Source: a virus. Taken from it: a DNA stretch of 64,000 nt. Both the position numbers and the translations under genes were made by a program. Numbering within the stretch: the stretch's first letter is position 1; every line of letters begins with the position of its first letter. Below the pieces are notes generated by a model, which had not been told where the DNA came from, did no database searches, and saw only the letters and a list, made by a program, of their open reading frames with translations. This document shows, piece by piece, positions 5,026 to 61,645 of the stretch. Location: the IMG/VR virus record IMGVR_UViG_3300010334_006426, positions 1 through 64,000 of that record; one strand, written 5' to 3'.

Positions 5026-5268
5026 TTAATACTGAAACGTATTATTATCTTCTGGAGTCTCTTCTTTATGAAACGGTAATGCTTTGTAAATCTTGTGTAG
5101 AATTTGCTTATCTTTAAGACCTAATGCTTTTAATCTGGAGTATTCTTTTCTGAAAGCACTTTTAAATTCCATAGAAAGGCTAAAATTTCGCGGGTAAAAC
5201 AACCGGGAAACTGTTTTAATGGGTTTATAGTTTTCTAATATCTTCTTTGCTTTGTTGTCAAAATTCAC
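5026..5268 (-). CDS. Hypothetical late protein
   Basis: ATAAATA 5 nt before GTG; N-terminus MNFDNKAKKILE. Confidence 0.6.
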   Translation of the reverse strand: MNFDNKAKKILENYKPIKTVSRLFYPRNFSLSMEFKSAFRKEYSRLKALGLKDKQILHKIYKALPFHKEETPEDNNTFQY

Positions 5269-5279
5269 ACTATTATTTA

Positions 5280-5975
5280 TTATAGAATACCTTTGTCTTT
5301 TTTCAGAAATTCTTTTTGATCTCTTATTAATTGCTCCATTTTAGCAATCTCATCCATGTTAACTAAGCTTTGCTCTTCACCGTACATTGTGCCTTCCGGT
5401 GTAACATACATTGCAATCTGCTCTATTCTCTCTTCTGTTGTACCGGAGATTTCTATAAGAGCGGGGCTATCGTGTTGTGGGAAAAAAGGCGAGACACCAG
5501 TAGTCTGAATTTGCTTATGAATGGCTTTAAAGATATTATCTATTTCAATAACATATTGTGGGTCAGTTTCCCTAATTAAATTACTTTCTATAGGCCCCAT
5601 TAAATCTCTGGTTATTAGAAAAATAATATCCAATGAGCGCATACTTTCTTTTACTTTTTCTATAGACATATTAATGTAATTTTCATTAAATCCCTTTAGA
5701 CCCTTATCATGTGCCCAGAGCGTATAAACTATATTATCTAACGGGCATCTATCATACACAACCTTATCATGCGGTGTGTAAGGCTTTTGTTGTGTAATCA
5801 TGAAATCTAATATTGCTAGTTGTGTCTTTTTATCTGTTTTTTTACTATGCCTGTTATTTTTTATTACATCTCTATATGTTGTTTTTGGCGTTTTATAATC
5901 AGACCAACGCTCTAGAAATGCTTTTACTACTGTAGTCTTACCTGTACACGCTGTTCCGCTAAAGGCAATCCGCAT
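5280..5975 (-). CDS. P-loop nucleoside/nucleotide kinase-like ATPase (dNMP kinase / NadR-like)
   Basis: N-terminal Walker A SGTACTGKTT and YDRCPLD motif. Confidence 0.65.
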   Translation of the reverse strand: MRIAFSGTACTGKTTVVKAFLERWSDYKTPKTTYRDVIKNNRHSKKTDKKTQLAILDFMITQQKPYTPHDKVVYDRCPLDNIVYTLWAHDKGLKGFNENYINMSIEKVKESMRSLDIIFLITRDLMGPIESNLIRETDPQYVIEIDNIFKAIHKQIQTTGVSPFFPQHDSPALIEISGTTEERIEQIAMYVTPEGTMYGEEQSLVNMDEIAKMEQLIRDQKEFLKKDKGIL

Positions 5976-6009
5976 ATTGTTATAATAGTGTAAAGTTCCT
6001 TGTAATCAA
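5976..6009 (-). promoter_or_regulatory. Sigma70-like promoter abutting the kinase start
   Basis: TTGATT-N16-TATTAT-N6-ATG on the minus strand. Confidence 0.55.
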
Positions 6010-6560
6010 CGGCCAATGAGCGGTTTGAATATATCCTCAAATGTTTTTGGCGGGTTGTTGAATCTATCGGGTTTTCTTAATTCAGCTTCTGTTTGTCCTT
6101 CTCTACCAAAAGGATTTGATTTTGTAGCGCCTTGTGGTATATTTTGAAAAACAATTCTATGTGTTTTAGGCGGTGAGCTTGGACGCGACAATTCTGGATA
6201 ATTTAGTTGATGTGTACCTATAGTTAAATTATCACCATTTAAATTAGCTATGCTACCCATATACGGTCCAAATAATTCATTTATATCTTGTGCCAGTTGC
6301 TGCATAGAATATTGATTTTCAGCTTGTGCTTGCTGTAAGTTTTTACCATTCTCTTGAATATAATTCATTAAATCAGAAATCATTGCTTGAAAAATAGCAT
6401 TAGAACGTTGCTGTAATTCTAAAGGATTTGCAGAATATTTTTGTTCTAAATCTTTTAGTGCTTCATCAAGAACATCCGCTTTTCTCTCCAATTCATCTCT
6501 AAACGTTTCTGCACTAGAAGATGCACCTTCTCTAAGAAAAAACTTGTTAAATGGCTTCAT
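6006..6560 (-). CDS. Hypothetical protein with capsid-targeting-like N-terminus
   Basis: Starts MKPFNKFFLRE; ATGA overlap with the upstream gene. Confidence 0.65.
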   Translation of the reverse strand: MKPFNKFFLREGASSSAETFRDELERKADVLDEALKDLEQKYSANPLELQQRSNAIFQAMISDLMNYIQENGKNLQQAQAENQYSMQQLAQDINELFGPYMGSIANLNGDNLTIGTHQLNYPELSRPSSPPKTHRIVFQNIPQGATKSNPFGREGQTEAELRKPDRFNNPPKTFEDIFKPLIGR

Positions 6561-8260
6561 TTTTTTCTTAATTTATTTACAAAGTCTAAGGTGGTATCAT
6601 ACTCTTGATCTTGTGGTTGTTGATTGTATTGTATAGGAGCAGCTTGCATAGGATTAGCAGCAGTAGCTTGCTTACCAAAAGGATCTAATACTTGTTGACC
6701 AGGTCTAATAATATTTGTAACTTCTTTATATCGTTTTGTTGCTGGATCGTATACAGCGGGAGTAACAAAAGTACCCAAGGCTGCTGCCTGCGCTGGTGTT
6801 AATACACGCCCACCAAAAGTATAGACCATATTACTTTGACCGGGTAGAGTAGGACCAGAGGAAGATTGATCATTATTACCCTCTCCTTCATCTTTCGTTT
6901 CACCACTTCTACCAGAAGTTTCTTTCATTTTTTTATCAAACCATGCATTTAAAGGGTTTATTATATTTGCAAACAATCTTGTCTGCATCTGTCTGTAAGC
7001 TTGGAACGCCGGTAACCCAACTCTAGTTAATTTCTTTACTGTCTTTTTTGCAGATTTTGCTAATCCCTTACCTACACCCTGGATAACTTCTTGCGTTGCA
7101 TTTGCAGCTTTTGTCTCAATAGATTTAGCTGCTTCCTTACTTGCAGCCTCAGCGCCAGTTTCTGCGGTTTTAGCAACTTCTTTTTCAATCTTAGCTGCCC
7201 CCTCCGCTGCTTTTAAAGCCGCACCCGGTGTTGCAATTTTATCAAAATATTTTAAATCTGGATAAACTTTTCGAATCACATCTATTACACTTGCAGGGGG
7301 TATATTGCCCATTTCTTTGCCAATGGTATGAAGATATGGCGCAACTAATGCGTCAGCCGGATTATCTACAATAAACTCAATAGCTTTTTTCACGGCACCT
7401 TCCTCACCATAAACTTCTCTAGGATTTTTTTTCATTCTTTCTCCTAGATGATAAATCTGCTTATCAACTAACTCTTTAAAGGTTTTATTTGTTTTTATGC
7501 CTTCCATTGCTGCTCGCGCGTAGTATTCTGTCCATTTAGCTACTTCCTCTGGTGATTTGCCTTCTAAACCTTTTAACGTGCCGGTTTTTGCAGTAGCCTC
7601 TAAAGTTTCTCCGGTACCTTTACCAAATGCATCAATAGCTGCTTTCTTAGCTTCTGCACCGCCTATTTTTTCAGCTGCCATTGCCATGGCTTCTGGCCCG
7701 CCCTTTGTACCTTTAACCAGCTTTAACATTTTTGTGTATATCTCCTCTATAAGCTTAGGAAATTTTGCGGCATTTTTGGTAGCATAATGGATGCTACCTC
7801 TTAACCCTATCCAACCGCCGCCGCCTATAGCAGCACCGGCTGCGGCACCAGGTATTGCGCCTACACCTGCACCAGCAGCCCCGGCTGCTGCACCTGCACC
7901 TGCGCCCATAAATAGACCCATATTTGGAACACAATTAAACAAATTTAATGCATACATCATCCAATTAAAAGTAGATGGTTTTTTTCTCCAAATAAAATAT
8001 GCTTCAATTGCATCGTCAACAGACATAAGACCTGTAGGATCTATTATTTCTACTGCTGTCATAAATATTTTACCTGCTGTACTATCTGCGTCCCCGGCTA
8101 ACCACTTTAACCCAGGAATTTTTTTACCCTTCAATGCAAATTTACCAATAGGATCAAGTATATTCTTTTCTAGTGGTTCTAAAAAATTACCTAACGATTC
8201 TAACGAACCTTCATTTAAAGGTTTATACTCATTAGCTACATATTGCTTAAACGTTTTCAT
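6557..8260 (-). CDS. Putative head-packaged/ejected protein with glycine-zipper membrane segment
   Basis: Start reassigned to ATG 8260 (MKTFKQYVANE, 1 nt after the upstream stop); DPTG motif followed by a hydrophobic GAGAGAAAGAAGAGVGAIPGAAAGAAIGGGG segment. Confidence 0.6.
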   Translation of the reverse strand: MKTFKQYVANEYKPLNEGSLESLGNFLEPLEKNILDPIGKFALKGKKIPGLKWLAGDADSTAGKIFMTAVEIIDPTGLMSVDDAIEAYFIWRKKPSTFNWMMYALNLFNCVPNMGLFMGAGAGAAAGAAGAGVGAIPGAAAGAAIGGGGWIGLRGSIHYATKNAAKFPKLIEEIYTKMLKLVKGTKGGPEAMAMAAEKIGGAEAKKAAIDAFGKGTGETLEATAKTGTLKGLEGKSPEEVAKWTEYYARAAMEGIKTNKTFKELVDKQIYHLGERMKKNPREVYGEEGAVKKAIEFIVDNPADALVAPYLHTIGKEMGNIPPASVIDVIRKVYPDLKYFDKIATPGAALKAAEGAAKIEKEVAKTAETGAEAASKEAAKSIETKAANATQEVIQGVGKGLAKSAKKTVKKLTRVGLPAFQAYRQMQTRLFANIINPLNAWFDKKMKETSGRSGETKDEGEGNNDQSSSGPTLPGQSNMVYTFGGRVLTPAQAAALGTFVTPAVYDPATKRYKEVTNIIRPGQQVLDPFGKQATAANPMQAAPIQYNQQPQDQEYDTTLDFVNKLRKK

Positions 8261-8261
8261 A

Positions 8262-8885
8262 TTATCCTCTATACTCAAAGTGATGCGGGTCACCCGGAAT
8301 TTGAGCATAATACCATCCAAACTTCGGCCCGTTAGTTTGCATCCATGCATATTCAGATGTACCGCGTTGTAAATCTAGTGCATTACCTAAGCCGTGTTTA
8401 GATGATCCAGGCTTACCTACAACAGCATATTTTCCTCTTAGACCTGCTTGATGATCTGTATTTCTATATGCACTATTAATTTTTATAGGTCCACCGTAAG
8501 CTTGTTGTGCAGAAAGAAAGGCTTTTGCAGCTCTAGGTGCAAGGTATGCATCATCTTTATACCATTGAGATAAACCAGGAGCTTCAGCATCATACTTACC
8601 AACCTTAACCAAATCCTTTTGCTGCAATTGACCGTTCTTACCGCTCATTGCAACAGGAGCATTTCTAGCTGTTACTTCAGGTTTTGCTATCGGCTTTGCA
8701 GAAGGCTGAACGACAGAAGAAGTAGGCTTAGCAGTAGAAATAGCCGTCTGCGGTGTACCAGGGGCTATATTTGTTTTAGATGCGGTATTACCTGTCTGAG
8801 CAGGCCTTTTAAGCTGGGTCGTTCTAGAAGATGCACCGGAGACATCGAAATATGCTTCTTTTACAAATTTTTTGAAACTAATCAC
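8262..8885 (-). CDS. Peptidase M15B (VanY / D-Ala-D-Ala carboxypeptidase-like cell-wall hydrolase)
   Basis: INSAYR..Q..L, PGSSKHGLGNALD, WMQTNG.KFGW, DPHHFEY; N-terminal MISFKKFVKE tag and P/T/A linker. Confidence 0.8.
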   Translation of the reverse strand: MISFKKFVKEAYFDVSGASSRTTQLKRPAQTGNTASKTNIAPGTPQTAISTAKPTSSVVQPSAKPIAKPEVTARNAPVAMSGKNGQLQQKDLVKVGKYDAEAPGLSQWYKDDAYLAPRAAKAFLSAQQAYGGPIKINSAYRNTDHQAGLRGKYAVVGKPGSSKHGLGNALDLQRGTSEYAWMQTNGPKFGWYYAQIPGDPHHFEYRG

Positions 8886-8889
8886 ATAT

Positions 8890-8897
8890 TATTTATA
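8890..8897 (-). promoter_or_regulatory. T4-type late promoter TATAAATA
   Basis: Exact TATAAATA 4 nt before GTG 8885; gp55 is encoded in the window. Confidence 0.75.
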
Positions 8898-8947
8898 TTC
8901 AATACAGGTAATGTATTAGAATATATAAGTCTATCAAATAAAATGAC

Positions 8948-9145
8948 TTATCTATTGATAACTGAGGCTAGTCTGGATTTAAACTGCTCTACAAACTTTT
9001 CTACAAAACTATCTAGAGCTTTATTGCCAGCTTCTATGCCATTATTCTTAATAATATTAGTTAGCTGGTCTTGATTGAGAAGAACTCTCCAGGATTCTTT
9101 GCCACCATTTTCACCAGTAATATTGACATCGATATTAATATTCAT
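8948..9145 (-). CDS. Hypothetical protein
   Basis: 65-aa ORF filling the gap, preceded by TTGCAT-N16-TAAATT. Confidence 0.6.
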   Translation of the reverse strand: MNINIDVNITGENGGKESWRVLLNQDQLTNIIKNNGIEAGNKALDSFVEKFVEQFKSRLASVINR

Positions 9146-9178
9146 AAAACAATTTAATTAAAAACAATATAAATGCAA

Positions 9179-9925
9179 CTACACCTTTAATGCTTTATCC
9201 CAAATTACAAGTTGTAGCCTAGGACTAAACTTTAAATCATGCTTTTTACATAATTCTGCAACCATTGCCGCCTTATTTGTATGTTCTGTCCTACTACCAC
9301 AACATGGCATTAACCATACCCTATGCTTAGGTACTAATACATCAGGATGTTCGATGTACTTTCGATATACTTCATCTAAATCTCTTAGATCATTAATCAC
9401 AAATTTAAAGCCTGAACCCGCCCTAACGTGCCATCTGAGGACGGTAGGTTTATATCTTTTTTCTTCTGAATCACCATTATTCGATAGCTTTGGCGAAGTT
9501 GTATATGTAGCTTGATATACTGACCATTCATCTAATGGCTGTATAGTTGCATTTGTTTCGAAATCAATTTTAGGTATAAACCCATTTCTCTTAGAAAACT
9601 CTCTTACTAGCTCCAATAAAGCTTTCTGCTGGATAAGAGGTTCACCGCCAGTAATCTTCCATATTGCTCCATCACGTAAATGCTTTGTGTGTCCTTCATT
9701 GTCTAATATATCAAGAATATCATTAACTGTAAAACGGTTTTTTACGGACCAACTGACAAAACTATCACAACCATGAGGTGAATCAGCTGATGCAAACCCC
9801 TTGCAAGTTAAATTACACATTGAAACTCGCATGAAAACTGAGGGCATGCCCGCATATTCTCCTTCACCTTCAATAGTATAAAAAATCTTATCATCGCTTA
9901 AGAAAATAATAGGTTGCTCACTCAT
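9179..9925 (-). CDS. queE: 7-carboxy-7-deazaguanine synthase (radical SAM)
   Basis: IFYTIEGEG..G.PSVFMR..CNLTC..CDS, ITGGEPL, ETNAT, SPKL, SPRLQ; other que genes nearby. Confidence 0.85.
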   Translation of the reverse strand: MSEQPIIFLSDDKIFYTIEGEGEYAGMPSVFMRVSMCNLTCKGFASADSPHGCDSFVSWSVKNRFTVNDILDILDNEGHTKHLRDGAIWKITGGEPLIQQKALLELVREFSKRNGFIPKIDFETNATIQPLDEWSVYQATYTTSPKLSNNGDSEEKRYKPTVLRWHVRAGSGFKFVINDLRDLDEVYRKYIEHPDVLVPKHRVWLMPCCGSRTEHTNKAAMVAELCKKHDLKFSPRLQLVIWDKALKV

Positions 9926-9976
9926 TATTAATATAATATATGCTTTATTCGGTTATTCAAGAATAAATATATATAG
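9926..9976. promoter_or_regulatory. Divergent promoter pair: sigma70-like for queE (-), late for phoH (+)
   Basis: Minus: TTGAAT followed by an AT-rich -10 just before ATG. Plus: ATAAATA-N7-ATG. Confidence 0.55.
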
Positions 9977-11359: not shown

Positions 11360-11394
11360 ATGTTTATATTAATATGCAAATACGGCTAATCAAG

Positions 11395-11709
11395 TTATTT
11401 CTTTTGATTTGCCTTGCAGTCCGTACAACCATCACAATCACAGCCTTCTGCAGCATACTTACAGTGTTCTTCTGTAACTAATTTGAAACTATAATACTTT
11501 TCAAGATATGTTGAAACGGCACCATCAAAACTCTCACTTGTTTTGGTCTTACCTGCATTATTCAATGCTATAGCAGCCGCTTGCTTCTGTGCAGCTTCCT
11601 TGCTAGCAGGCTTTGAAGAACCTATCTTACCTTTAGCTTTGTAACTATTCATTAATTCAGAAATATTTTTACCTACTGTTTGTGCTGATGATCCGGGGTT
11701 TAATGGCAT
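11395..11709 (-). CDS. Small late protein with Cys-rich C-terminus
   Basis: TATAAATA 4 nt before ATG; C-terminal HC..CDCDGCTDC. Confidence 0.65.
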   Translation of the reverse strand: MPLNPGSSAQTVGKNISELMNSYKAKGKIGSSKPASKEAAQKQAAAIALNNAGKTKTSESFDGAVSTYLEKYYSFKLVTEEHCKYAAEGCDCDGCTDCKANQKK

Positions 11710-11717
11710 AATAATAT

Positions 11718-12974
11718 TTATATTAAATTAACACCTTTTAATTCTTTTAAAACAAATATAATAGGCTTAGTCGACTTTTTAATTTGCGGCAACTCTGCAA
11801 GTTTTTGCATAACTTTATCAAATTTATCTAGATTTCTATCTTTATTTGGTAATATTTTGTCAGAAATTTTATTTACCATATCGCCTAAATCATCTGGCAG
11901 GTTATTTGCAAGCAATTCTTCTAATGCCTTTCTAACAGTCTGTCTTACTTCGTCTTGAATAGTCTGTAAGGATATTTTACCCTCTTGATCTGTAATTCTA
12001 TTTAGAACTGAAATGATTTTACTTCCTTGATAATCCATAACCTTTGCATTGTAATATCTATCTTGTTCTTTTATTTTTTTAAATTTAATAATTAATATAC
12101 CTTTTTGCTCGGGATTGCCTAGAACTGCAAAATCTAAGCTTAAATCTATTTCCCTAGCTAGTTCAGTAGGCTCTAGTTCTATAATTTGGTTAACTTTTCT
12201 TCTACCTTCGAAAATACCTTTAGTGGTCATTCCTGAAGCCTGGTACTCCACCACCCCGTGCTTCATAGTCTTTAAGCCTTTAAGAGGTAAATTTTTTACA
12301 TAAATAGTATCGCCTTCCCTAACACCAGTAGGATATTCTTTTGACTTAGCTTTTCCATATCTGTCTACATCTACTAAATCATTAGGATTTAATGTTCTTA
12401 TAAATTTACCCAATTTACCTATAAAATTATTTTTACCTACAACAAACTTAGGAATACTAGAATAGGCTGATACGGCTTTGCCCGCTAAATTGCCTGCTGT
12501 TTTTAATAAATCGATAGGTGATAATCCTGGTATTAAATCTACTCCACTTTCATTTTGTAATATATTCTTATAAAAAGCCTTTAATTTTTCACTTTCATAA
12601 CCTAGTTCTTTTAAATAGGTTTCTATAAATTCATCGTTATTACTATTGAGAATATTTTTATAGCTAGGATTATCTTTGTTGATATTATTTTTCTGCAAAG
12701 CAGTTAAGATTTTTTTTTTGAAATTATCGAATGATGGTTTTTCTTGTACCGGTTCTATATGCTTCTTATCAACAGTCTGAATAGGTTCTATATTACTAGG
12801 GACATTTAATACATATACTTCAACAGTGTCAATACTTTCTGATAATATATAGCCTTCAAAGCTAGATACATTCTCATAGCCAAATGTAGATAGCTGTGAC
12901 GGGTCTACCTTAATTCTAACTTTCTTGAGCTTAGTTTGACCTAATGCTCTTTCAATTAAACCATCTACACGCAT
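11718..12974 (-). CDS. Hypothetical late protein
   Basis: 418-aa ORF; ATAAATA directly upstream. Confidence 0.7.
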   Translation of the reverse strand: MRVDGLIERALGQTKLKKVRIKVDPSQLSTFGYENVSSFEGYILSESIDTVEVYVLNVPSNIEPIQTVDKKHIEPVQEKPSFDNFKKKILTALQKNNINKDNPSYKNILNSNNDEFIETYLKELGYESEKLKAFYKNILQNESGVDLIPGLSPIDLLKTAGNLAGKAVSAYSSIPKFVVGKNNFIGKLGKFIRTLNPNDLVDVDRYGKAKSKEYPTGVREGDTIYVKNLPLKGLKTMKHGVVEYQASGMTTKGIFEGRRKVNQIIELEPTELAREIDLSLDFAVLGNPEQKGILIIKFKKIKEQDRYYNAKVMDYQGSKIISVLNRITDQEGKISLQTIQDEVRQTVRKALEELLANNLPDDLGDMVNKISDKILPNKDRNLDKFDKVMQKLAELPQIKKSTKPIIFVLKELKGVNLI

Positions 12975-14395: not shown

Positions 14396-14428
14396 ATAAT
14401 ATAGTATTTATTACTATAAATAATAATA
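14396..14428. promoter_or_regulatory. Back-to-back late promoters
   Basis: Plus TATAAATA before ATG 14429; minus ATAAATA before ATG 14395. Confidence 0.65.
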
Positions 14429-14947
14429 ATGAGCGAAAAAAAAGAAGTATTGAATATAACGGAAGCTTATAAAAAGATTGTTATAAATGAATTAGGCGGC
14501 TCAACTCCAGGGGACGGAGTCAGCACGGTACCCGCTCCGCAACATTCTTCTGTTGTTGCAATAAAAAATGAAGAGGAAATATCGCCTAGAGAAGTAGAAA
14601 CGGGCGAAACCGGCTCAGATATGGCTAAAGGTGAATTATACAAACTACATAAAGATGCTAAGGACTTATATAATTTAATATCTTCATGTGAAAATTTAGA
14701 ACCATGGATTTTTAGCAAAATAACTGTTGCCGCTAGTTATATTCAAGGGGTAAAAAATTATTTAGAATATGATAATTTTAAGAAAAAAGGAGAGTTTACC
14801 CCTGAAGCCGGAGGACATGAAGATCTTGTTGCAATGAAAGTGAAGGACATGCTAAATGGAGAGAGTCGTGAAGTTGTTGAGAAGGTTTTACGTCAAGCAA
14901 TATTTAATTTAGAAGCTATACAAGCGCTAGAAGAAGTTAAGCAATAG
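14429..14947 (+). CDS. Hypothetical late protein (possible prohead core/internal protein)
   Basis: Late promoter; N-terminal ITEAY; helical MAKGELYK..LEPWIFSKIT..YLEY block. Confidence 0.6.
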   Translation: MSEKKEVLNITEAYKKIVINELGGSTPGDGVSTVPAPQHSSVVAIKNEEEISPREVETGETGSDMAKGELYKLHKDAKDLYNLISSCENLEPWIFSKITVAASYIQGVKNYLEYDNFKKKGEFTPEAGGHEDLVAMKVKDMLNGESREVVEKVLRQAIFNLEAIQALEEVKQ

Positions 14948-16262
14948 TTCTTCTCGGGCCACCAAATTGTCTATTAATTTTAGTAAACTCTAATCTGTCT
15001 ACTAATTTAACATGATTAGTACCAACAAATAATACAATTCCTTCATCTTTTGTCGGGGTAAAAGAGCCATCAGCATTTTGTATAAATGTTTTGCCTACTT
15101 TTGATTCTAACGTAGCTAGCGCTTGCAGTAATAAATTCTTAGCACGTGCCATGTGAAATGTACCTGTAATTAAATTCAAAAAATTTTCTTTATTTTGCTC
15201 TAAAAACGATAGCACACTATTCATTCTTAATTCGATATTATGTTTACCAGTAGGTGTTTTTTTTGATTCTTGTTCTTTCGTATATCTTGAAGCAATAAAT
15301 TGCCTCAAACCGTCAATAAATTTGTCTATAAAAAACTCCTCTCCTCTAGCGGCGGCACCAAAAATACCTTGTGGTGCAATATCTACCTGTTTGTTTAAAT
15401 ATATTTTTAATAATGACAGAATAGGATTAGTTAGGTATTCGGCATTAAACTGCTGTGATATATTTCCAATATATAACTTAGCTTTACTTGCTTCAGCATT
15501 TATTTTTTTTAAAAGATCATCCGAAATATTAACAGATAAAGAACTAAAATTACTACTCTGAATAAACGCTTTAGATTTTACGCTGCTGGATATTAATGAG
15601 TCAACGTTTCTACCTTGCGAGATTAGCTCTATACCACCAGTACTAGTAGGTTTACCCTTAAATGATTCATGAACTATAATGCCAACTTCTGAATTACTTA
15701 CTCTATTAGATAATGGACTCTTCGAATCTACAGGAACTGCATAAGCAATTATATTTGGCTTAAAAGTAATAAAATTCTCTTCCCCAATCTTTACAATTTT
15801 TTTATCTTTTGGAAGTGCAAATAATACATCAGCTTGATATATTTTGCCAGACCCGTCATAGGCCTGCCTCAAATATTTAAGTAAATTTTTTAATTTATTT
15901 TCTAGTTCAGGCTTATCGCCATAAAAAAGATTAACCTCAGAATCAGCATGCATTATTTTTGGATTTGCTTGACTCAATCCGCCTTTAAGTGATATAAAAA
16001 ACTGATTTTTAAATTGTGATCTCGGATCAATACCAAATAGAATCATTGGACTGCCATCTATTTTTGCATTCATTTCTTGGTTCGTTTCAAAGCCTTTTAT
16101 TTTTTTGTTTATTTCATCTATATGTTGAATAAAATTTTCAAACCCTTCTTTACCATTTTCAATTGCTAAATCTTCTAAATGAGATAAATGTGTTTTTAAG
16201 TGTGCATCACTTTCTATTATTACTTTTTTTTCTTCTTGAATAAAATTTATAAAAGAGTTCAT
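14937..16262 (-). CDS. Ligase/capping-enzyme-like nucleotidyltransferase (resembles a conserved T4-like phage family, possibly DUF6267)
   Basis: THLSHLED, motif I KIDG, QAD, motif IV DEGIVL, motif V KLVDRLEF. Confidence 0.6.
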   Translation of the reverse strand: MNSFINFIQEEKKVIIESDAHLKTHLSHLEDLAIENGKEGFENFIQHIDEINKKIKGFETNQEMNAKIDGSPMILFGIDPRSQFKNQFFISLKGGLSQANPKIMHADSEVNLFYGDKPELENKLKNLLKYLRQAYDGSGKIYQADVLFALPKDKKIVKIGEENFITFKPNIIAYAVPVDSKSPLSNRVSNSEVGIIVHESFKGKPTSTGGIELISQGRNVDSLISSSVKSKAFIQSSNFSSLSVNISDDLLKKINAEASKAKLYIGNISQQFNAEYLTNPILSLLKIYLNKQVDIAPQGIFGAAARGEEFFIDKFIDGLRQFIASRYTKEQESKKTPTGKHNIELRMNSVLSFLEQNKENFLNLITGTFHMARAKNLLLQALATLESKVGKTFIQNADGSFTPTKDEGIVLFVGTNHVKLVDRLEFTKINRQFGGPRRTIA

Positions 16263-16894
16263 TTTTTTAATCTTTCGTAAACTTTTGCCATATCTTCCTT
16301 TGTAATCGGTGGTAAAAACTTCTTAAACAAATCAAAATTATTTTTGCTTAAAGCTTCTCTAGCTTTTGTCGCTGATGTTAATCTAGATACTTCTTTTTGA
16401 TTTATACTCTTGACCTCTTTACCGCTAAACACAGATGCGTTTTGATTCTTAAAAAAGGCGCTATATCTATCTTGTGCATCTTCTTGACTAGCGTATAAAT
16501 TTATTGAATAAGGTCCTTTAGTTTTCTGCTGTATCAAAGACACTACTTCCTGAGCTTTTGGATGAGGTGCTTGCGATCTGGGTGTGGGTGTAAATCTACC
16601 ATTATTAAGAATATCTGCAATATGGTAAACCGCTAAAACAGGCGACCCTGAGGTTAGTATAAAATTAATATTTTTAGGTAAATATGTTTTGTACATATTC
16701 CATATATCTAGAGATTGTTGAGATGTAATATTATCCCTATCTATAGCAGATATAAGTACAAACACCATGTTATTCTCGAGACAGGCCTTTTTTACTGTAT
16801 CAAAATGCCCTTTGTGTGGGGGTTTAAACGCACCAGGAAATACACCTATAGAGGTTTCCGCGGACTCGATTAAAAACTGTCTAAACGTTTTCAT
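16259..16894 (-). CDS. HIGH-family nucleotidyltransferase (cytidyltransferase/NadD/CoaD-like)
   Basis: GVFPGAFKPPHKGH and C-terminal SATKAREAL; N-terminal MKTFRQFLIE tag. Confidence 0.75.
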   Translation of the reverse strand: MKTFRQFLIESAETSIGVFPGAFKPPHKGHFDTVKKACLENNMVFVLISAIDRDNITSQQSLDIWNMYKTYLPKNINFILTSGSPVLAVYHIADILNNGRFTPTPRSQAPHPKAQEVVSLIQQKTKGPYSINLYASQEDAQDRYSAFFKNQNASVFSGKEVKSINQKEVSRLTSATKAREALSKNNFDLFKKFLPPITKEDMAKVYERLKK

Positions 16895-18073
16895 TTAGAG
16901 ATTCTTCAGCGGTTCTTTTAAGCCTATCTTAGGCGCGCCAGCACTAATCTGATTTGCATAAATAAATTCGCCTAATCTTTCTTTTGGAATATAAACAAAT
17001 ACATCTGAATTAACTATAAAAAGACCAGTTTCAGGAAAAGTATTAAAAATAACGTTTGTCAATGCAGTACGTATTTCCTCCAGTCCTTGAGCTAAATTTA
17101 AACTTTTTATGGTTTGTTTAAACGAATCTTGATTAGTACATTTTTTAAACAGCCTGCATTGTTTTTGTGTAATGGACCTATCTATGTTTCTAGCTTCTTT
17201 TTCAAAAAAATCTTTTTCCTGCTGATCATCTGCATTTATTTTATAATTCTTCAATATTGTATCGTACAAATCTTTTATATTGGTATTGTTTCCGCCAGGT
17301 GTAGTAGTTGTAACAACATCATTTAATACGTCAGCAAACTGTTTTAACGAAAAAATTAATGCAGGCCGGAGTTTATAATGACCTAGCGCTAGTTTATCGC
17401 CTAATAAAATTCCTTGAGACAGCTCCACGTTTGACTTGCTAAGAATAGTATGTATGTATTTGTCTATTGTCCAGCCCTCCAGACGGTCTTGATACTGAGG
17501 TCCAACAGCTATTCGAGTAATAGGGTTTTTTATTATGGCATCGTTAATAGCGGCCTTACTACTATCATCCATAGAATCATATGCTCTTAACACTTCATCT
17601 AAAAATCCATTTACGGCGTTTATTACTTGTGTTGCTGCCTGCTTACCGTTAGTGCCTGTACGAACTGTTTTTGTTTTCTTACCTTCCTTATCAGTAACAA
17701 TTTTAATTTCCTTAACTTCATAATGACCGCCATCTGGAGCTAAAACGTCAAAGCTAACCCCGGAACCCTGTATAATACTAAATGAACGTCTTTTAAATTC
17801 CGCAGCTTTATGGGCCTCTAACCGCCTAAGAGCATCATAAGAACTAACACCCCAAAATATACAAGCAAGACTATACTCACCTCTACCTACTCCGCCGTCT
17901 ATTGTATTAAAAAGCTCAGTTGGGTTTGCAAGATTAAATTCTGTCCATTTGTACTGCCTGCCAGGCTCAAATGCATTGGTTTGTTCTAATAAAACTTGCC
18001 GTCTTGGTAGAGGCGGTATAGGCCTGAACATGACCTGTTCTGTATATAGACAGTTTAAACTCTTGTAGTCCAC
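16895..18073 (-). CDS. Putative PD-(D/E)XK nuclease-fold protein
   Basis: GVGRGE...SFDVLAPDGGHYEVKE spacing (E..D..ExK); CATAAATA 4 nt before GTG. Confidence 0.45.
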   Translation of the reverse strand: MDYKSLNCLYTEQVMFRPIPPLPRRQVLLEQTNAFEPGRQYKWTEFNLANPTELFNTIDGGVGRGEYSLACIFWGVSSYDALRRLEAHKAAEFKRRSFSIIQGSGVSFDVLAPDGGHYEVKEIKIVTDKEGKKTKTVRTGTNGKQAATQVINAVNGFLDEVLRAYDSMDDSSKAAINDAIIKNPITRIAVGPQYQDRLEGWTIDKYIHTILSKSNVELSQGILLGDKLALGHYKLRPALIFSLKQFADVLNDVVTTTTPGGNNTNIKDLYDTILKNYKINADDQQEKDFFEKEARNIDRSITQKQCRLFKKCTNQDSFKQTIKSLNLAQGLEEIRTALTNVIFNTFPETGLFIVNSDVFVYIPKERLGEFIYANQISAGAPKIGLKEPLKNL

Positions 18074-18087
18074 AAGTTATTTATGAT

Positions 18088-19799: not shown

Positions 19800-20021
19800 C
19801 TATTTAATCAGCGGCCGTCTTTGTACAACTATTTTACGTTTTTTGCCAATTTTTTTAGCTCCGAGTGCTACAGGGACCCTACTATCTCCAGGTGCATAGA
19901 AATCCGTATTACCAACAGCACCGCCATGGCCCATTGACGTTGCAGTACCAAAAACACCACCGTCACCAGCAGCATTCATTTCATAAAAAAATGTTTTAAA
20001 TGTCTTATACTTGATTATCAT
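19800..20021 (-). CDS. Small hypothetical protein with tag-like N-terminus
   Basis: KTFKTFFYE followed by a Gly-rich segment and basic tail. Confidence 0.55.
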   Translation of the reverse strand: MIIKYKTFKTFFYEMNAAGDGGVFGTATSMGHGGAVGNTDFYAPGDSRVPVALGAKKIGKKRKIVVQRRPLIK

Positions 20022-20044
20022 AGACGTTATCTTATTATTTATGA

Positions 20045-31945: not shown

Positions 31946-32620
31946 ATGTGTGGTATTTTTGGAGCGACTGAAAGAGAGCAATTTCTCACCCTCTACGAAT
32001 TAAATCAAAAGAGAGGCAATTTTGCCACATCGCTCTGCTTTGTTAATAAGAAAGGCGATATGCATATTCATCGCTGGAGCGGCGTCATAGATACTCGGCA
32101 AATTAAAAAAACTCTAGATAATACAGAAGAAGAAATTGTTATGCTTGTCGGTCATACACAAGCACCTACTTCCTCGAAAAGAAAGTATTCTGCAGAAACC
32201 GCTCACCCTTTTAACGTACAAAACTATACAATAGCACATAATGGGGTTTTATCTAATTTTAATGATTTGAAGGAAATGTTTGACCCTAAATGGAAGAATC
32301 CTGTTGATAGTAGTATTATACCTTTTATGTGTACAATGTATGAAGAAGAATTTCCAAACAGTGAAAGTATAGAAGCAATTATACATACGCTAGGTAAACT
32401 GGAAGGTACGTTTGGACTATGGATATATGAATCATCGCGCAATACAATGTATCTTGCAAGATGTGGTAGTACGTTGTTTGCTAATAAAATAGAAAATAGT
32501 TTTAGCAGTGTAAAATTTAAAAACTCTGAAGCTCTGGACGAAGGGAGTTTATATCAATTGACACCTGAAGGGATTACAGCTGTAGGGGTGTTTGACTGTG
32601 ACAGTCCGTTCTTTACTTAA
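31946..32620 (+). CDS. Class II (Ntn) glutamine amidotransferase
   Basis: N-terminal MCGIFG, GHTQAPT, AHPF, AHNG, VDS; directly after queC. Confidence 0.85.
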   Translation: MCGIFGATEREQFLTLYELNQKRGNFATSLCFVNKKGDMHIHRWSGVIDTRQIKKTLDNTEEEIVMLVGHTQAPTSSKRKYSAETAHPFNVQNYTIAHNGVLSNFNDLKEMFDPKWKNPVDSSIIPFMCTMYEEEFPNSESIEAIIHTLGKLEGTFGLWIYESSRNTMYLARCGSTLFANKIENSFSSVKFKNSEALDEGSLYQLTPEGITAVGVFDCDSPFFT

Positions 32621-33465
32621 TCACCGAAGCTAAATCCACCAGCGTCAACTCCTCTATCTCTACCTATCATTCCTAGCTCCCGGGCAACCGTACCTGCGTC
32701 GTCTGTCTCTGGATAATCTTCTATTGTATCCACTTCACCCGATCCTTCGCCTTCTGCAGATTGTTTTTCTACTTGCTTTTCCTTTAGTACTCCTGCTTGC
32801 TTAAGAATATCTATTAAATCATAAGATTTTATCTTTAATTGCTGATCTTTAGGCAAGCCCGGGGTCTCGTTGTATTCTTTTATAGCGTTTTTAAGTACAC
32901 CTAAAATTTCTTTTTCGTTAATATCTTCGTCAGGCAGCCCAAAGACTAAAGCCTTCAGCTTCTTATTCTCAATAGCTACCGATTTATCTATTTCATATAC
33001 AGTTTCTGTCTTTACTGGCTTAGCCTCTGGAGCAGATTTTGCACCATCTTCTACAGCTTTTTCCACTTCTTTAGGCTGCGCTACGGCATTACCATGTTCA
33101 TCTATATCAATAACATCAAGTAAATTATTAACTATTCTAGCTGTATAGCCTGCAACAGTTGATCCAATTTTTAGTTCGTCTTTTATTAAATTAATTAACT
33201 CAACCTTGAATTTATCTTTTGAACCAGGGTAAAATAGTTTATATTCCATACCATTAGATGTATGTGTTACAGGTTTGAACAGCTTGGTTTCTATACTGTT
33301 AATTAATGAATCAATTTTTTCGTCCGGTAACCCCTTCAAGCCGTAACCACCACCAGCACCCTGACGGGGATCAGATTTAAATTTTAACTTATCAACAGCA
33401 TATTTTGCCATTTCATCTAAATGCTTTGAATATGCCTCAAAAATAAATTTACTATCATTGTCCAT
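32617..33465 (-). CDS. Hypothetical late protein
   Basis: TATAAATA upstream; starts MDNDSKFIFEAY; acidic C-terminus. Confidence 0.7.
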   Translation of the reverse strand: MDNDSKFIFEAYSKHLDEMAKYAVDKLKFKSDPRQGAGGGYGLKGLPDEKIDSLINSIETKLFKPVTHTSNGMEYKLFYPGSKDKFKVELINLIKDELKIGSTVAGYTARIVNNLLDVIDIDEHGNAVAQPKEVEKAVEDGAKSAPEAKPVKTETVYEIDKSVAIENKKLKALVFGLPDEDINEKEILGVLKNAIKEYNETPGLPKDQQLKIKSYDLIDILKQAGVLKEKQVEKQSAEGEGSGEVDTIEDYPETDDAGTVARELGMIGRDRGVDAGGFSFGD

Positions 33466-44772: not shown

Positions 44773-45699
44773 TTATTTAAAGAAATCGCCAGCCTTGTAA
44801 CCTGGTGCGTTTACTTTATTGTTCTTGCCTTGTAAGGAATGACCCTTACTATCAGGTAGAGCAGAAGGCTTACCATCCATTGTTACACCTTTGGTGTCAC
44901 CGGAAGCCTTGGAGCTCTTAGCATGGCCAAGCTTACCTGGAACTTTATTGTTCTTGCCTTGTAGGGATTGACCTTTACTATCGGGAAGTTCTTCTAATTC
45001 CGTGGCTTCACCAGCAACAGCTTCTTCATCTTCATCTTCATCTTTCTCTTTCTTGTCGGCCTTACTCTGTTCATCTTCGTCGGAGCCAGCTTCTTCAGCG
45101 CCAGCTTCTTCAGCGCCAGCTTCAGATCCTTCTACATCTTCTTTATCTTCGCCGTGTTCTTCAGAGCCACCTAGTACATCGCCGAGCATATCATGTAGCT
45201 TCTGAGCAACATCGCGAGGAAGAGTTACTGTAACATCTTCGTGTTCACCGCCAAGGTCTTCAGCTTTATCAGCCTCAGCACCCTCGGGGCCGGCTTGAAT
45301 GCCTAAATCAAAGGCATCATCCTTCATTACATCTTCGTAAAGTCTATCAAAAATTGATTTGCTCATATTATTATTTATATTCGCTGGATCCTTTTTTTCA
45401 AGAGCCGTAGAAAATTTTTGTGGCTCAAAATGATTATTTTTTTTAGCAGTTTTTGGATCCACTATATCTTTACTAAACCCTTCTGCAGCCTCTGGGCCAG
45501 TATTTTTTAAAGAAAAAGCATTTTTATCACTTCCCTTAGAGGTAATTTTCTTAGTATCTATTTTTTTATCCTTAGCAGAGGCAAAAGTATTCAAAGTTTT
45601 AACAGTCTTCTCTTCAACGACATTTTGCTTTATTTCAGGGCTTTTTTTCATAGCCTCGTAAACTAACCCTATATCCTTTATACTTTTTACTCTTGTCAT
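44773..45699 (-). CDS. Acidic low-complexity late protein (prohead core/scaffold-like)
   Basis: TATAAATA upstream; E/D/K-rich; internal repeats; own terminator. Confidence 0.65.
   Translation of the reverse strand: MTRVKSIKDIGLVYEAMKKSPEIKQNVVEEKTVKTLNTFASAKDKKIDTKKITSKGSDKNAFSLKNTGPEAAEGFSKDIVDPKTAKKNNHFEPQKFSTALEKKDPANINNNMSKSIFDRLYEDVMKDDAFDLGIQAGPEGAEADKAEDLGGEHEDVTVTLPRDVAQKLHDMLGDVLGGSEEHGEDKEDVEGSEAGAEEAGAEEAGSDEDEQSKADKKEKDEDEDEEAVAGEATELEELPDSKGQSLQGKNNKVPGKLGHAKSSKASGDTKGVTMDGKPSALPDSKGHSLQGKNNKVNAPGYKAGDFFK
44813..44988 (-). repeat. Duplicated coding motif LPDSKGxSLQGKNNKV, 129 nt apart
   Basis: ACTTTATTGTTCTTGCCTTGTA at 44813 and 44942. Confidence 0.8.
45085..45123 (-). repeat. 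15-nt tandem repeat encoding AEEAG
   Basis: GCCAGCTTCTTCAGC x2 plus a partial third copy. Confidence 0.8.
45372..45379 (-). promoter_or_regulatory. Intragenic late promoter TATAAATA
   Basis: Exact motif 5 nt before the in-frame ATG at 45366. Confidence 0.6.
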
Positions 45700-56388: not shown

Positions 56389-56777
56389 TTGGATTAAGTG
56401 CTTTAGGCGGGTTTAGAAAAGATATTAATCTTTTAGAAAAAATACCATCTATTAGTTATGAAAATATTTTTCGTATGTATTTGACTGAAAATACTGATAA
56501 TACAAATTTCTATTATTATAATTTGCTCAATAGTGTTTATTTTCCAGATGATATACCTAGCAGCATCTATTATGCTATTACGTTAAATAAAAGACTTCCA
56601 TGGACAGCTATTAGTTATAATGAATATAGAACTACAGATTTATGGTGGCTAATTGTCTTAGCAAACAAAATACATAACCCAGTTTACTATCCCGCACCAG
56701 GTTCAACCTTAAGAATTATTAAACCTGAATATGTAAAGCTTATATTTAACGAAATAACCGCTCAAATAAAACAATAA
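56385..56777 (+). CDS. gp53: Baseplate wedge gp53-like (LysM-type)
   Basis: ISY..Y.TTDLWWLIVLAN.I.NP...G..LRI. Confidence 0.75.
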   Translation: MIGLSALGGFRKDINLLEKIPSISYENIFRMYLTENTDNTNFYYYNLLNSVYFPDDIPSSIYYAITLNKRLPWTAISYNEYRTTDLWWLIVLANKIHNPVYYPAPGSTLRIIKPEYVKLIFNEITAQIKQ

Positions 56778-58330: not shown

Positions 58331-59154
58331 GCATTACTACAGATCCACAGCTAACACAAATAAATTTATTTTATAAGAAGGATTTCTACGAAAAAGCATC
58401 CAACTATCTTGGCGCAATACAAAGTTATTCTACTGAGCTCGGTTATGCTATAGAACATTCTAAGGCAAAAGTCGCTAATGACCCTATAACAGCGATGTCA
58501 GATTTCTACGTTAAGATGGATAATAGAATGAAAAGTATGGGAGCACAATTTACAGCGCATTGGATAAAAAATTATAATTTAACATTAGAAAAAGTAAGAA
58601 ATGAAGTTGGTCTAAAAATTGGTACAGGTACTTTTTATCGCAGTTTTGGTGATAGTATTGGCAGTATAGCTAGACAAGAAACTCTTTACGATGAGAGCAC
58701 CACATCAATTCAAAATAAAGCTTTTCCTGTGAGATATGGTTCTTCTATGTCGAACAAAATACACCCTCAAATACAATTACTTTATGCGGACTTTAGTAAT
58801 AAACTTAATAAAATTTTTAATCAAAATTTACAAAATATACAATCAACAGGTTCTTTGTCTACTAAATCCCATGGAGAAAATTTAGTGCCCGACGTAGAGC
58901 ATTCAAAAAGAATACAGAGCATAATTGCAACGTTAAATCAAAAAATAAGGAATGAATTTAAGGAACTTTACAATGTAATACTTCTCTATTGTCAGTACAA
59001 TCCTAGAGCATCAACTCAAAATATTCAATTTGTTCCAAATTTTAACATTACAGTTAATGTAGAAGGTAACAACTTAAATCAAGATATACTCTTTAATCAA
59101 TTACAAGAAGTTAAGAAAGATATTGTCACGAAGACAATACTGGGACTAGGGTAA
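58327..59154 (+). CDS. Hypothetical tail-module protein
   Basis: 275 aa, ATGA-coupled. Confidence 0.6.
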   Translation: MSITTDPQLTQINLFYKKDFYEKASNYLGAIQSYSTELGYAIEHSKAKVANDPITAMSDFYVKMDNRMKSMGAQFTAHWIKNYNLTLEKVRNEVGLKIGTGTFYRSFGDSIGSIARQETLYDESTTSIQNKAFPVRYGSSMSNKIHPQIQLLYADFSNKLNKIFNQNLQNIQSTGSLSTKSHGENLVPDVEHSKRIQSIIATLNQKIRNEFKELYNVILLYCQYNPRASTQNIQFVPNFNITVNVEGNNLNQDILFNQLQEVKKDIVTKTILGLG

Positions 59155-59608
59155 CATTTACTGCCTCTGCTTGTGCCTCTATAACTTTTGCTTCGTCCAG
59201 AATGCGCTTAAACACCTCATCTCGACTTAATAAAAGTTTTTCTTTTCTATCATCGTCTTTCAACATTTTTCTAGATTCAATTTCCATAATTTTTAAATCT
59301 TTTGCAGAGTCTTTCTTCATTTGTGTTACGTGAATATCTTTAATAATAGAAAGCGCACTCGACACAGCCTTTAATGCCTCAGATAGTGCTTCTACCTCTC
59401 GACTTTCAGGGTTATTCATTACATAATCCTTTACACCTTCAACTATTTCAAGACCTTGAGTTACTAGCTTACCAGTACTATTAAGTACAAAACTTTCTAA
59501 CTTTTCCCTAGGTAGATCGAAATTATTATTGAGAAGATCCTTATTATTGTTTGTATTAACTTTTAATTGGGTTATTAAGTCGTCTACGCTAAATTCTTTT
59601 TCTGCCAT
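59126..59608 (-). CDS. Terminase small subunit gp16-like
   Basis: Helical ~160 aa, PESREVEALSEALKAV resembling the gp16 PRxxEV helix; TATAAATA upstream. Confidence 0.45.
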   Translation of the reverse strand: MAEKEFSVDDLITQLKVNTNNNKDLLNNNFDLPREKLESFVLNSTGKLVTQGLEIVEGVKDYVMNNPESREVEALSEALKAVSSALSIIKDIHVTQMKKDSAKDLKIMEIESRKMLKDDDRKEKLLLSRDEVFKRILDEAKVIEAQAEAVNVTLVPVLSS

Positions 59609-59656
59609 TCATTATTTATACCTTGAAATTAATATACAATATATTATATTATTACT
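59609..59656. promoter_or_regulatory. Divergent late (-) and sigma70-like (+) promoters
   Basis: Minus TATAAATA-N4-ATG; plus TTGAAA-N16-TATATT-N6-ATG. Confidence 0.6.
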
Positions 59657-60100
59657 ATGAGTAATGTTCCTTATTCCCCTAACATGAAGTTTGAGAAAAC
59701 TCATCCTAACGCACAGCTTCCTAAGAAAAATTTTCCTACAGATTCTGGCTGGGATTTATTTGCTGTCGAAAATACTGTTATCCCTGCTAATGGCAAAGCT
59801 GTTGTGCCCGTTGGACTTAAGCTGGCCTATCTTGAAGACGGGTATTGGCTGAGTGTTGAGTCTAGATCCGGCTTGAGCTTTAAAAACTCCATTTTAGCCC
59901 ACCCTGGAGTTATAGATCAAAACTATAGAGGCGACCTTGGTGTGCTACTATATAATCATAGCAGCGCGGATTATAATGTTTCAGCAGGTGAGAGAATAGC
60001 CCAGCTGGTATTACACTATAATATACAAATTAATGTTGATTGGGGTGCTATTCAACTGACGGATAGAGGCGAAAAAGGATTCGGAAGTAGCGGTAAATGA
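59657..60100 (+). CDS. dut: Trimeric dUTPase
   Basis: SGWDL, RSGL, GVIDQNYRG, GERIAQL, RGEKGFGSSG. Confidence 0.95.
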   Translation: MSNVPYSPNMKFEKTHPNAQLPKKNFPTDSGWDLFAVENTVIPANGKAVVPVGLKLAYLEDGYWLSVESRSGLSFKNSILAHPGVIDQNYRGDLGVLLYNHSSADYNVSAGERIAQLVLHYNIQINVDWGAIQLTDRGEKGFGSSGK

Positions 60101-61032
60101 TAGATGTCGATAAAGTCTGGACGGAAAAATACCGTCCTGCAACATTGAATGATATAGTTTTATCAGAAAAAAATAAATCTATACTTAAAAAGTTTGTTGA
60201 TCAAGATGAAATTCCTAATCTTCTTTTTTGCGGGCATGCTGGTATAGGAAAAACAACATCAGCTAAAGTGCTTATTAATATACTTGACGCAGAACATATC
60301 TACCAAAATTGCTCTGAGGTGGGGATTGATGCAGTTCGGAATGATATAACAGGGTTTAGTAGAACAAAGAGTTTTAACGGTAAGAAGAAAATTGTTTTGC
60401 TAGATGAGATTGATGGAATGGCTTCTATAGAAGCGCAAAGATCTCTACGTAATGTTTTGGAAGAATACGCCGGGCACTGCAGATTTATATTGACTTGTAA
60501 TTACAAGCACAGAGTTATTGTACCGCTGCAAAGCAGATGCCAGTCTATTGATCTAGATCCAAATATTACTGAGGTTGCAAAGAGATGTTTCACCATCTTA
60601 AAGCAAGAGACAATTGCTGTTGACGAAGAAAATAAAAAGAGATTAGTTGGATTAATTAGAAAATATTTTCCAGATATACGCAAGTGTATCAATGAAATGC
60701 AAAAGTTTTCCACAGACGGTAAGCTCACTATACCTGATTTAAATGTTAATAGTGACTTTGCCGATAAAATAATTAAACTAGTAACTAGCAAGAAGGTTCT
60801 ACAGGGTCGAAAATTTGTTATTGAGAATGAAGCTTCTTTTAACGGGGATTACCCTATTTTGATGAAAAATGTCTTTGATGAAATCTGTAAAGGTAATTAT
60901 GGCTTAACAGAAAATCAAAAAAGAATGTGGCTTGTTACTACTGGCGAATACATGTACAGATCGGCATTAGTTCTAGATCAAGAAATAAATTTTTACTGTT
61001 TATTGTTGGCGTTATCAGAGATTAGCGCTTAG
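60097..61032 (+). CDS. gp44: Clamp loader ATPase gp44
   Basis: WTEKYRP, GHAGIGKTT, LDEID, FILTCN, LQSRC, FPDIR. Confidence 0.92.
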   Translation: MIDVDKVWTEKYRPATLNDIVLSEKNKSILKKFVDQDEIPNLLFCGHAGIGKTTSAKVLINILDAEHIYQNCSEVGIDAVRNDITGFSRTKSFNGKKKIVLLDEIDGMASIEAQRSLRNVLEEYAGHCRFILTCNYKHRVIVPLQSRCQSIDLDPNITEVAKRCFTILKQETIAVDEENKKRLVGLIRKYFPDIRKCINEMQKFSTDGKLTIPDLNVNSDFADKIIKLVTSKKVLQGRKFVIENEASFNGDYPILMKNVFDEICKGNYGLTENQKRMWLVTTGEYMYRSALVLDQEINFYCLLLALSEISA

Positions 61033-61645
61033 GTAAATACTTGGCCGTAGATTTTCCTGGATTAGGGAAATTAGGATTAACTTCTGGAGTGCGAGCATCT
61101 TTTGCAGGTGAGCTAGGTATTTGAACATTTACATTATTAAGTTTTCTATCACCTTCATTATCTTTATTATTACCTAAATCACTAGTCTGTGTTTGTCTAA
61201 AAGGGCGTAATGTTGCTTCAGCTGTTTTTTCTGCTTGCTCTAGCTTAGGGTCTATATTAACGTTACCTTCTCTTTTTAGACTATTAGGAACCGGGGCTAA
61301 ATTAGGGTATGTATGTATAGGTTCTAAAAGATGTGCTGGTACAGTAATAAATTCACGATATAAACCAGGCGCAACCTCTTGAACTATGTCAACTATGAAC
61401 GATTCTGCTTCGTTTTGTATATCACCAGAGTGAATAGTGGGTCTAACTGTTTTTATGGCGCTAACACGAAGATTGAGACCGCTATCTTTGAAAGATTTGG
61501 CCTTTTGAACATAGTTTGGAGCTTGCTTCTTGAAGAAATCATCACTAAATGCATTTTCTGTGAATTTAACTAAATCACCAGTTAGAAATCCACCTCTAGT
61601 AAACCTTTGAATAGAAGATTCATATAGCCTGACAAATTTGTTCAT
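61022..61645 (-). CDS. Hypothetical late protein
   Basis: TATAAATA upstream; MNKFVRLYE. Confidence 0.65.
   Translation of the reverse strand: MNKFVRLYESSIQRFTRGGFLTGDLVKFTENAFSDDFFKKQAPNYVQKAKSFKDSGLNLRVSAIKTVRPTIHSGDIQNEAESFIVDIVQEVAPGLYREFITVPAHLLEPIHTYPNLAPVPNSLKREGNVNIDPKLEQAEKTAEATLRPFRQTQTSDLGNNKDNEGDRKLNNVNVQIPSSPAKDARTPEVNPNFPNPGKSTAKYLPKR

Follow-up and report, generated by a model that had tools for sequence, protein, structure and literature searches.

Why do seven unrelated late genes of a marine virus begin with almost the same short peptide? The question is raised by IMG/VR virus record IMGVR_UViG_3300010334_006426, of which we analysed positions 1 to 64,000 (the window, a stretch of 64,000 nucleotides). 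The shared N-terminal peptide, here called the tag, occurs far beyond chance, is modular, and matches the capsid-targeting sequence (CTS) of phage T4 at the functional positions of the latter. The window covers the initial 64 kb of a contig of 105 kb, which derives from an uncultured marine T4-like myophage. This contig carries terminase, sheath and tube genes and a replication module, and its head module lies outside the window. The closest sequences are other IMG/VR contigs, with 60-75% protein identity. The cultured relatives, Methylophilales phage Melnitz and cyanophages, are remote, and a megablast search with the tail region against cultured phages found no close relative.

We consider it probable (about 0.75) that the seven N-termini are T4-type capsid-targeting propeptides, and infer from sequence comparison the scaffold docking, cleavage after Glu, location in the head (not the tail) and delivery at infection that this reading entails. 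Each tag would be a short amphipathic propeptide, with aromatic residues 4 and 7 serving to dock the freshly made protein on the scaffolding core of the assembling prohead. The hydrophobic-x-Glu end would be cut by the gp21-family prohead protease of the phage, and the mature cargo would remain beside the DNA inside the head and pass into the host when infection begins. The cargo set would comprise a peptidoglycan peptidase of the VanY type, a protein resembling retropepsins, an enzyme resembling RNA ligases, an HxGH nucleotidyltransferase, a small basic protein like gp61.1 and two proteins without assigned function, one of which has a hydrophobic segment rich in Gly and Ala. Proteins injected with the DNA decide the first minutes of infection, including whether the phage evades restriction and the defences that deplete NAD or target RNA. 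In environmental phages, this injected set is probably predictable from sequence.

The tag in the window and its match in T4

The tag follows the consensus M-x-[T/S/P]-F-x-x-[F/Y]-h-x(1-2)-E and was found at the minus-strand starts 6560, 8260, 8885 (a GTG start), 14395, 16262 and 16894, and at 20021 after four extra residues (MIIK). Residue 4 is F in 7/7 tags, residue 7 is F or Y in 7/7, and Glu stands at position 10 or 11 in every one; the residue at -3 from this Glu is, across the seven, L, I, L, F, F, V and A. All seven are present exactly as written in an earlier reading of this DNA (the original prediction), which had called them near-identical. A strict pattern search in six frames of the 105-kb contig returned seven matches, six of them at the start codons of long open reading frames (ORFs), which all lie at 6.5-17 kb on the minus strand, and the seventh at an internal site at 12869; the tag of 20021 was caught by the pattern only when the initiator residue was not required. 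With a log-odds matrix trained on the seven tags themselves, six N-termini scored 15.6-23.3 bits, the next best among about 110 genes scored 4.3, and the maximum over 30,749 internal positions was 13.6 bits. The 418-residue late protein encoded at 11718-12974 (minus strand) carries its strict match not at the start codon but at residues 36-46 (..SSFEGYILSE); this match is kept in a relative (L007) as ..DSYEGYILEE and could be a processing or docking site.

The original prediction counted about 20 tagged genes, among which the seven stand. Its 13 looser N-termini scored at most 2.7 with the matrix, and only 18073, 45366 and 61645 among them passed a permissive pattern. This pattern was matched by nine non-core N-termini where 4.5 were expected by chance, and the enrichment without the core was not significant. 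The looser cases are thus not separable from chance by either measure, which does not disprove them, and since they lie within noise the robust tag count is seven. A nuclease (16895-18073) that had been listed among the tagged enzymes passed the permissive pattern only and is not robustly tagged. The replication and tail genes had been described as lacking the tag, and none of them carries it. We also compared gene 32617-33465 with the S-SCSM1 virion protein ORF89 on account of their similar N-termini, and rejected it as a homologue when BLASTP gave no match.

The CTS of the T4 internal proteins IPI, IPII and IPIII was reported by Mullaney and Black (1996), with reviews in PMC9026906 and PMC3012670. 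In the IPIII CTS, mutagenesis assigned residues 4 and 7 to targeting and residues 8 and 10 to processing, cleavage by gp21 occurs after L/I-x-E, and the CTS alone suffices for the packaging of foreign proteins (PMC9026906). The constant positions in the window tags, 4, 7, 8 and 10, are exactly these targeting and processing residues. Applied to the whole T4 genome (2,426 candidate starts), the window-derived matrix ranked gp61.1 first, ipI second, ipIII fifth and ipII sixth. The motif scan of the genome and its relatives that the original prediction had suggested isolated the core tags here and recovered the T4 internal protein genes. The head module of the contig includes a gp21-family protease homologue, which retains the GELNHP and SSR motifs (His and Ser), together with scaffold and major capsid proteins (Table 1).

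T4 gp61.1 (54 residues; NC_000866 18966-19130, minus strand; locus L010) has a textbook CTS as its first ten residues, and aligns with small tagged proteins adjoining primase genes in IMG/VR contigs. It may be an overlooked head-internal protein of T4.

The tagged genes had also been placed behind a late motif, which is correct for the seven: xATAAATA boxes stand 11-22 nucleotides 5' of 20021, 18073, 14395 and 8885, and the remaining tagged genes lie further down these operons. Late boxes on the minus strand (5281, 8897, 11722, 12986, 18085, 18841) stop 4-5 nucleotides short of start codons, implying leaderless or nearly leaderless late mRNAs. A shared N-terminus might be an expression signal for such mRNAs, with virion presence following from mere abundance. 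The short distance between box and start codon in several genes and the AT-rich, Lys-rich composition of the tag would fit this, and cyanophage proteome authors mention possible carry-over. However, four of the seven tagged genes are operon-internal, without a promoter of their own, and the tag is missing from genes directly behind late boxes (12974, 11709, 5268, and capsid and tail genes). What is conserved is the amino-acid sequence: Ser at tag positions is encoded by both AGT and TCT, and fixed residues vary freely in synonymous codons, which indicates selection on the peptide. In addition, permuted tag codons gave no match in IMG/VR (see below). Together, the operon-internal tagged genes, the conservation of the peptide and the sufficiency of the T4 tag for packaging foreign proteins (PMC9026906) make an expression signal highly improbable.

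Cargo of the tagged genes

The capsid-targeting reading treats the tag as an address carried by otherwise unrelated proteins. By Pfam and PHROG the seven cargo proteins are mutually unrelated (Table 1), and their mature parts gave no PHROG or Pfam match to the T4 internal virion proteins (IPI/IPII/IPIII). The Pfam domains of the cargo follow the tag either immediately or behind a linker. In S-PM2 and S-SZBM1 the DUF6267 orthologues have no tag and start directly at the conserved HLxHLED motif; most other DUF6267 homologues retain the tag. Since the tag lies outside the cargo folds and homologues without it exist, it is a separable add-on.

Two of the tagged enzymes are adjacent, at 14937-16894. 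In the first of them, the DUF6267 protein, the K67-x-D-G and EG motifs are invariant, and F4 and E17 are at least 90% conserved. In an AlphaFold2 model (predicted local distance difference test, pLDDT, 89), the tag is predicted to form a detached helix at residues 4-11, behind which comes a disordered linker with a near-invariant second Glu at residue 17, an arrangement that resembles the 19-residue propeptide of T4 ipI. When this model was compared with an exhaustive structural aligner, the top 18 rows were all ligases, with moderate Z scores of 8.6 for a nick-sealing RNA ligase, 8.0 for T4 Rnl2 and 6.7 for T4 Rnl1; Foldseek with the same model gave no match at E <=0.001. At these moderate scores the modelled structure suggests an RNA-ligase-like fold. 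The neighbouring nucleotidyltransferase has a GxFxPPHxGH motif from residue 17, and the virions of S-CREM2, S-SCSM1 and S-SZBM1 contain its tagged counterparts. Fusions of DUF6267 with cytidylyltransferase occur in relatives (proteins P0089, P0093 and P0101), which suggests that the two tagged enzymes work together.

The PF05618 domain of the retropepsin-like protein starts at residue 12, right behind the tag, and its orthologues retain the tag. In the VanY-like protein the tag is followed by a low-complexity linker of about 100 residues and then by the VanY domain at residues 118-194. The 73-residue protein can be aligned to T4 gp61.1 and to two virion proteins, S-SCSM1 ORF97 and S-CREM2 ORF160, and its counterpart in relative L007 has the tag at the very start; because this family is of low complexity, the apparent homology is tentative. 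The 567-residue protein belongs to no Pfam or PHROG family and gave weak matches only in a protein atlas search, where its model is poorly ordered (pLDDT 0.42).

Two further N-termini are listed in Table 1 as candidates and were not counted as tagged. One of them arises within a longer gene: ORF 44773-45699 (minus strand), which adjoins the terminase gene, contains a perfect TATAAATA box and an internal ATG, and these would give a nested product from 45366. This extremely acidic product would be reminiscent of the T4 prohead core proteins gp67 and gp68.

Table 1. Tagged genes, late-promoter boxes, head-module genes and uncounted candidates (window positions unless marked as contig positions)
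Feature	Position	Strand	Details
Predicted coiled-coil protein, function unassigned, 184 residues	6006..6560	-	Tag MKPFNKFFLRE
Function-unassigned protein, long Gly/Ala-rich hydrophobic segment, 567 residues	6557..8260	-	Tag MKTFKQYVANE
VanY/M15 D-Ala-D-Ala carboxypeptidase-like protein, 207 residues	8262..8885	-	GTG start, tag ISFKKFVKE; Pfam VanY 25.9 bits vs cutoff 25
PF05618 protein, retropepsin-like, DTG motif, 134 residues	13991..14395	-	Tag MVTFKQFFYE; Pfam 38.8 bits vs cutoff 27
DUF6267 protein, predicted ligase-like nucleotidyltransferase fold, 441 residues	14937..16262	-	Tag MNSFINFIQE; Pfam PF19782 2e-57
HxGH nucleotidyltransferase (cytidylyltransferase/NMNAT-like), 211 residues	16259..16894	-	Tag MKTFRQFLIE; PHROG cytidyltransferase 1.6e-9
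Gly-rich protein with basic tail, gp61.1-like, 73 residues	19800..20021	-	Tag KTFKTFFYE after four extra residues
Late-promoter box TATAAATA, operon 8885/8260/6560	8890..8897	-	5' of 8885
Late-promoter-like box AATAAATA	14405..14412	-	5' of 14395
Late-promoter-like box CATAAATA, operon 18073/16894/16262	18078..18085	-	5' of 18073
Late-promoter-like box CATAAATA	20036..20043	-	5' of 20021
gp21-family prohead protease homologue	contig 84457-85131		PHROG 207 6e-58; 35% identity to T4 gp21
Scaffold protein	contig 85480-86355		Own N-terminus with ..ILKE|A site; adjoins gp21 homologue
gp23-type major capsid protein	contig 86432-87901		..VNE|A site where T4 gp23 is cleaved
Candidate, very acidic 197-residue product, N-terminus ..SIFDRLYE	44773..45366	-	Internal start, own TATAAATA box; permissive pattern
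Candidate, N-terminus MNKFVRLYE, one residue short of tag	61022..61645	-	TATAAATA box; permissive pattern only, low matrix score

Tagged proteins in related phages and their virions

We scanned IMG/VR with the exact back-translated pattern M-K-T-F-K-Q-F-h-x-E, and obtained at least 133 matches at no fewer than 120 loci; the same codons in permuted order gave 0 matches. Among the matches listed, 128 of 133 head ORFs of at least 50 residues, and among the loci listed, 92 of 120 have neighbours similar to T4 or to this phage. The T4-like neighbours at listed loci include gp17, gp18, gp15, gp13, gp61, gp23, gp20 and gp21; the tag is mostly on T4-like contigs. Without the tag, the cargo of the matches listed fell into at least 75 unrelated families, 55 of them singletons. 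Sampled families included S-adenosylmethionine (SAM) lyase, ADP-ribosyltransferase-like proteins, lysozyme with LysM, the DPBB domain, cytidylyltransferase, DUF6321 and DUF7178. At the positions left free by the pattern, the 120 distinct tags among the matches listed have I or L at residue 8 in 79 and A or S at residue 11 in 52, which looks like the Glu-Ala/Ser site of gp21. In one IMG/VR contig (3300025288_000189; L032:7000-9422), a stretch of 2.4 kb holds four genes whose tags are identical and whose bodies are unrelated, a cluster that resembles the hypervariable internal-protein loci of T-even phages.

These neighbourhoods also bear on whether the tag might serve to engage a different partner, be it a chaperone, an enzyme that modifies the protein, or a pathway to the membrane or for secretion. 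A radical-SAM-like gene lies at 9179-9925; however, across the IMG/VR loci listed only the T4-like head module co-occurs with the tag, and we regard another partner as very unlikely. The serine-rich radical-SAM client tag of RB43-type phages was weighed as another type of shared leader and rejected, as it consists of serine-rich 16-mers of unrelated sequence.

If the tag directs proteins into the head, its carriers should be found in virions, and published cyanophage proteomes allowed this to be followed. Three such papers (PMC9602691, PMC10665884, PMC9146016) report "non-structural" enzymes (NMNAT/cytidylyltransferase, SAM hydrolase and kinases) in particles purified on caesium chloride, and leave open whether these are truly packaged. 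For S-CREM2, 52 virion proteins are given among 221 ORFs (Table 3 of PMC10665884). When we ranked its 219 called genes with the matrix, the top four were ORF136, the cytidylyltransferase ORF154, the SAM hydrolase ORF6 and the kinase ORF14, and 4/4 were virion proteins by mass spectrometry (hypergeometric p ~0.003). Within ORF1-20, the virion proteins ORF6, 12, 13 and 14 have the tag or a close variant (a variant in the neighbours ORF12 and ORF13), and the 14 undetected ORFs do not. The virion-detected NMNAT of S-SCSM1 (ORF91) begins with the tag. In S-SZBM1 the virion-detected cytidylyltransferase has a version one residue shorter, and the untagged DUF6267 gene adjoining it was not detected in virions. 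The tag therefore goes with virion association in relatives; some classes of these virion enzymes are also cargo classes of the window, with the same tag on them. A different placement was seen in S-SCSM1 ORF93 (L137:7627-7836), a 69-residue virion protein with a tag-like C-terminus, ..RTFKEFLEYIE, followed by the stop codon.

Several observations weigh against head targeting as we propose it. Several of the seven tags have F, V or A at -3, where T4 has L/I. S-SCSM1 ORF30 is strongly tagged and was not reported in virions, and the T4-like cyanophage S-PM2 lacks the tag entirely, which shows that the system is not universal; the number of tagged genes per phage is 7 here, 4-6 in S-CREM2, 4 in T4, few in Melnitz and 2 in S-SCSM1. 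The proteome authors themselves allow for carry-over of abundant proteins, and the published mass spectrometry does not resolve head from tail. Finally, in S-SCSM1 a peptidoglycan peptidase is delivered within a tail or baseplate protein, and a tail route would suit wall-degrading cargo just as well.

A rival reading is that the tag routes proteins into the virion but not the head, by way of the tail tube, the tape-measure protein or the baseplate hub, with wall-degrading and membrane-active proteins released first. The VanY domain is 44% identical to the peptidase domain in S-SCSM1 ORF214, a 1131-residue virion protein of the baseplate-hub module (L140:5318-8713), and the PHROG match of the 207-residue VanY protein is a tape-measure protein. 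Other tagged IMG/VR cargo includes lysozyme and DPBB lytic-transglycosylase-like domains, and the proteomes are silent on the compartment. However, the tag matches a T4 head signal at experimentally defined positions, and its Glu-Ala/Ser end resembles the site of a prohead protease that is active inside proheads. Cytoplasmic-type cargo predominates (SAM lyase, kinase, NMNAT, ligase-like proteins, and ADP-ribosyltransferase like T4 Alt), and T7 holds a wall-degrading enzyme inside its head. We therefore consider a tail route unlikely. On the capsid-targeting reading, the VanY-type peptidase as a free tagged protein here and embedded in the baseplate hub in S-SCSM1 would be two alternative delivery routes.

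The original prediction of a modular capsid address on unrelated enzymes was thus overstated in number, and is supported in substance by the similarity to the T4 CTS, the gp21/gp22/gp23 module, the modularity of the tag and the virion proteomes of relatives. The CTS and its use by the variable internal proteins of T-even phages have long been known. In the searchable literature we found no mention of a near-verbatim tag in marine T4-like phages this remote, of recognisable enzymes and at least 75 cargo families that bear it, or of its match to the unexplained enzymes of cyanophage virion proteomes; a search with literal tag strings returned only the T4 CTS in an engineering paper. The words N-terminal, targeting and propeptide are absent from the S-CREM2 paper (PMC10665884), and the accessible parts of the proteome papers of S-SCSM1 and S-SZBM1 give no packaging signal. 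On balance we favour the view that M-K-T-F-K-Q-F-h-x-E is a sequence-readable "ship to capsid" address throughout the T4 superfamily, in ocean cyanophages as well as in phages that infect other marine bacteria. In that case a simple scan of N-termini in genomes and metagenomes could reveal the injected effector set, which would include SAM lyases, ADP-ribosyltransferases, kinases, NMNAT-like and ligase-like enzymes, proteases and wall hydrolases. Such an address would also account for the puzzling "non-structural" enzymes of cyanophage virions and give them a mechanism, would predict gp61.1 as a T4 head protein, and would allow the T4 CTS packaging toolbox to be extended to marine phages.

Comparison with known head-internal proteins

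In the giant phages phiKZ, 201phi2-1 and SPN3US, many head-internal proteins are likewise cut after Glu by a gp21-related prohead protease (PMC9026906). Their ejection systems differ in having longer propeptides and an S/A-x-E motif, and a single short shared N-terminal address is not described for them.

T4 Alt is a head-loaded ADP-ribosyltransferase with a short N-terminal propeptide that ends in Glu and is trimmed by gp21, and it is injected with the DNA; ADP-ribosyltransferase-like cargo is tagged in IMG/VR relatives. Unlike the window tags, the Alt propeptide has diverged further from the CTS, and we found no Alt homologue among the tagged genes of the window.

The closest parallel is the T4 CTS itself. 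Both are 10-residue N-terminal peptides with an aromatic residue 4 (Y in T4 ipII and ipIII, F in ipI), F at residue 7, a hydrophobic residue 8 and Glu at residue 10, and in both phages unrelated proteins share the tag and the genome has a gp21 protease and a gp22 scaffold. However, seven carriers are present here compared with three in T4 (four with gp61.1), the mature parts in the window are non-homologous to the T4 internal proteins, residue -3 is often F or V, and packaging and cleavage here are predicted from sequence. The cargo also includes recognisable enzymes rather than small basic proteins. The original prediction had contrasted such cargo with inert T4 internal proteins, a description that does not fit T4, where IPI* is an anti-restriction protein and Alt a head-packaged enzyme (PMC3012670, PMC9026906). 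A review has already proposed the CTS as an evolutionary device for loading varied proteins (PMC9026906). Given IPI* and Alt, the enzymatic cargo of this phage is an extension of what is established in T4 and not a new principle.

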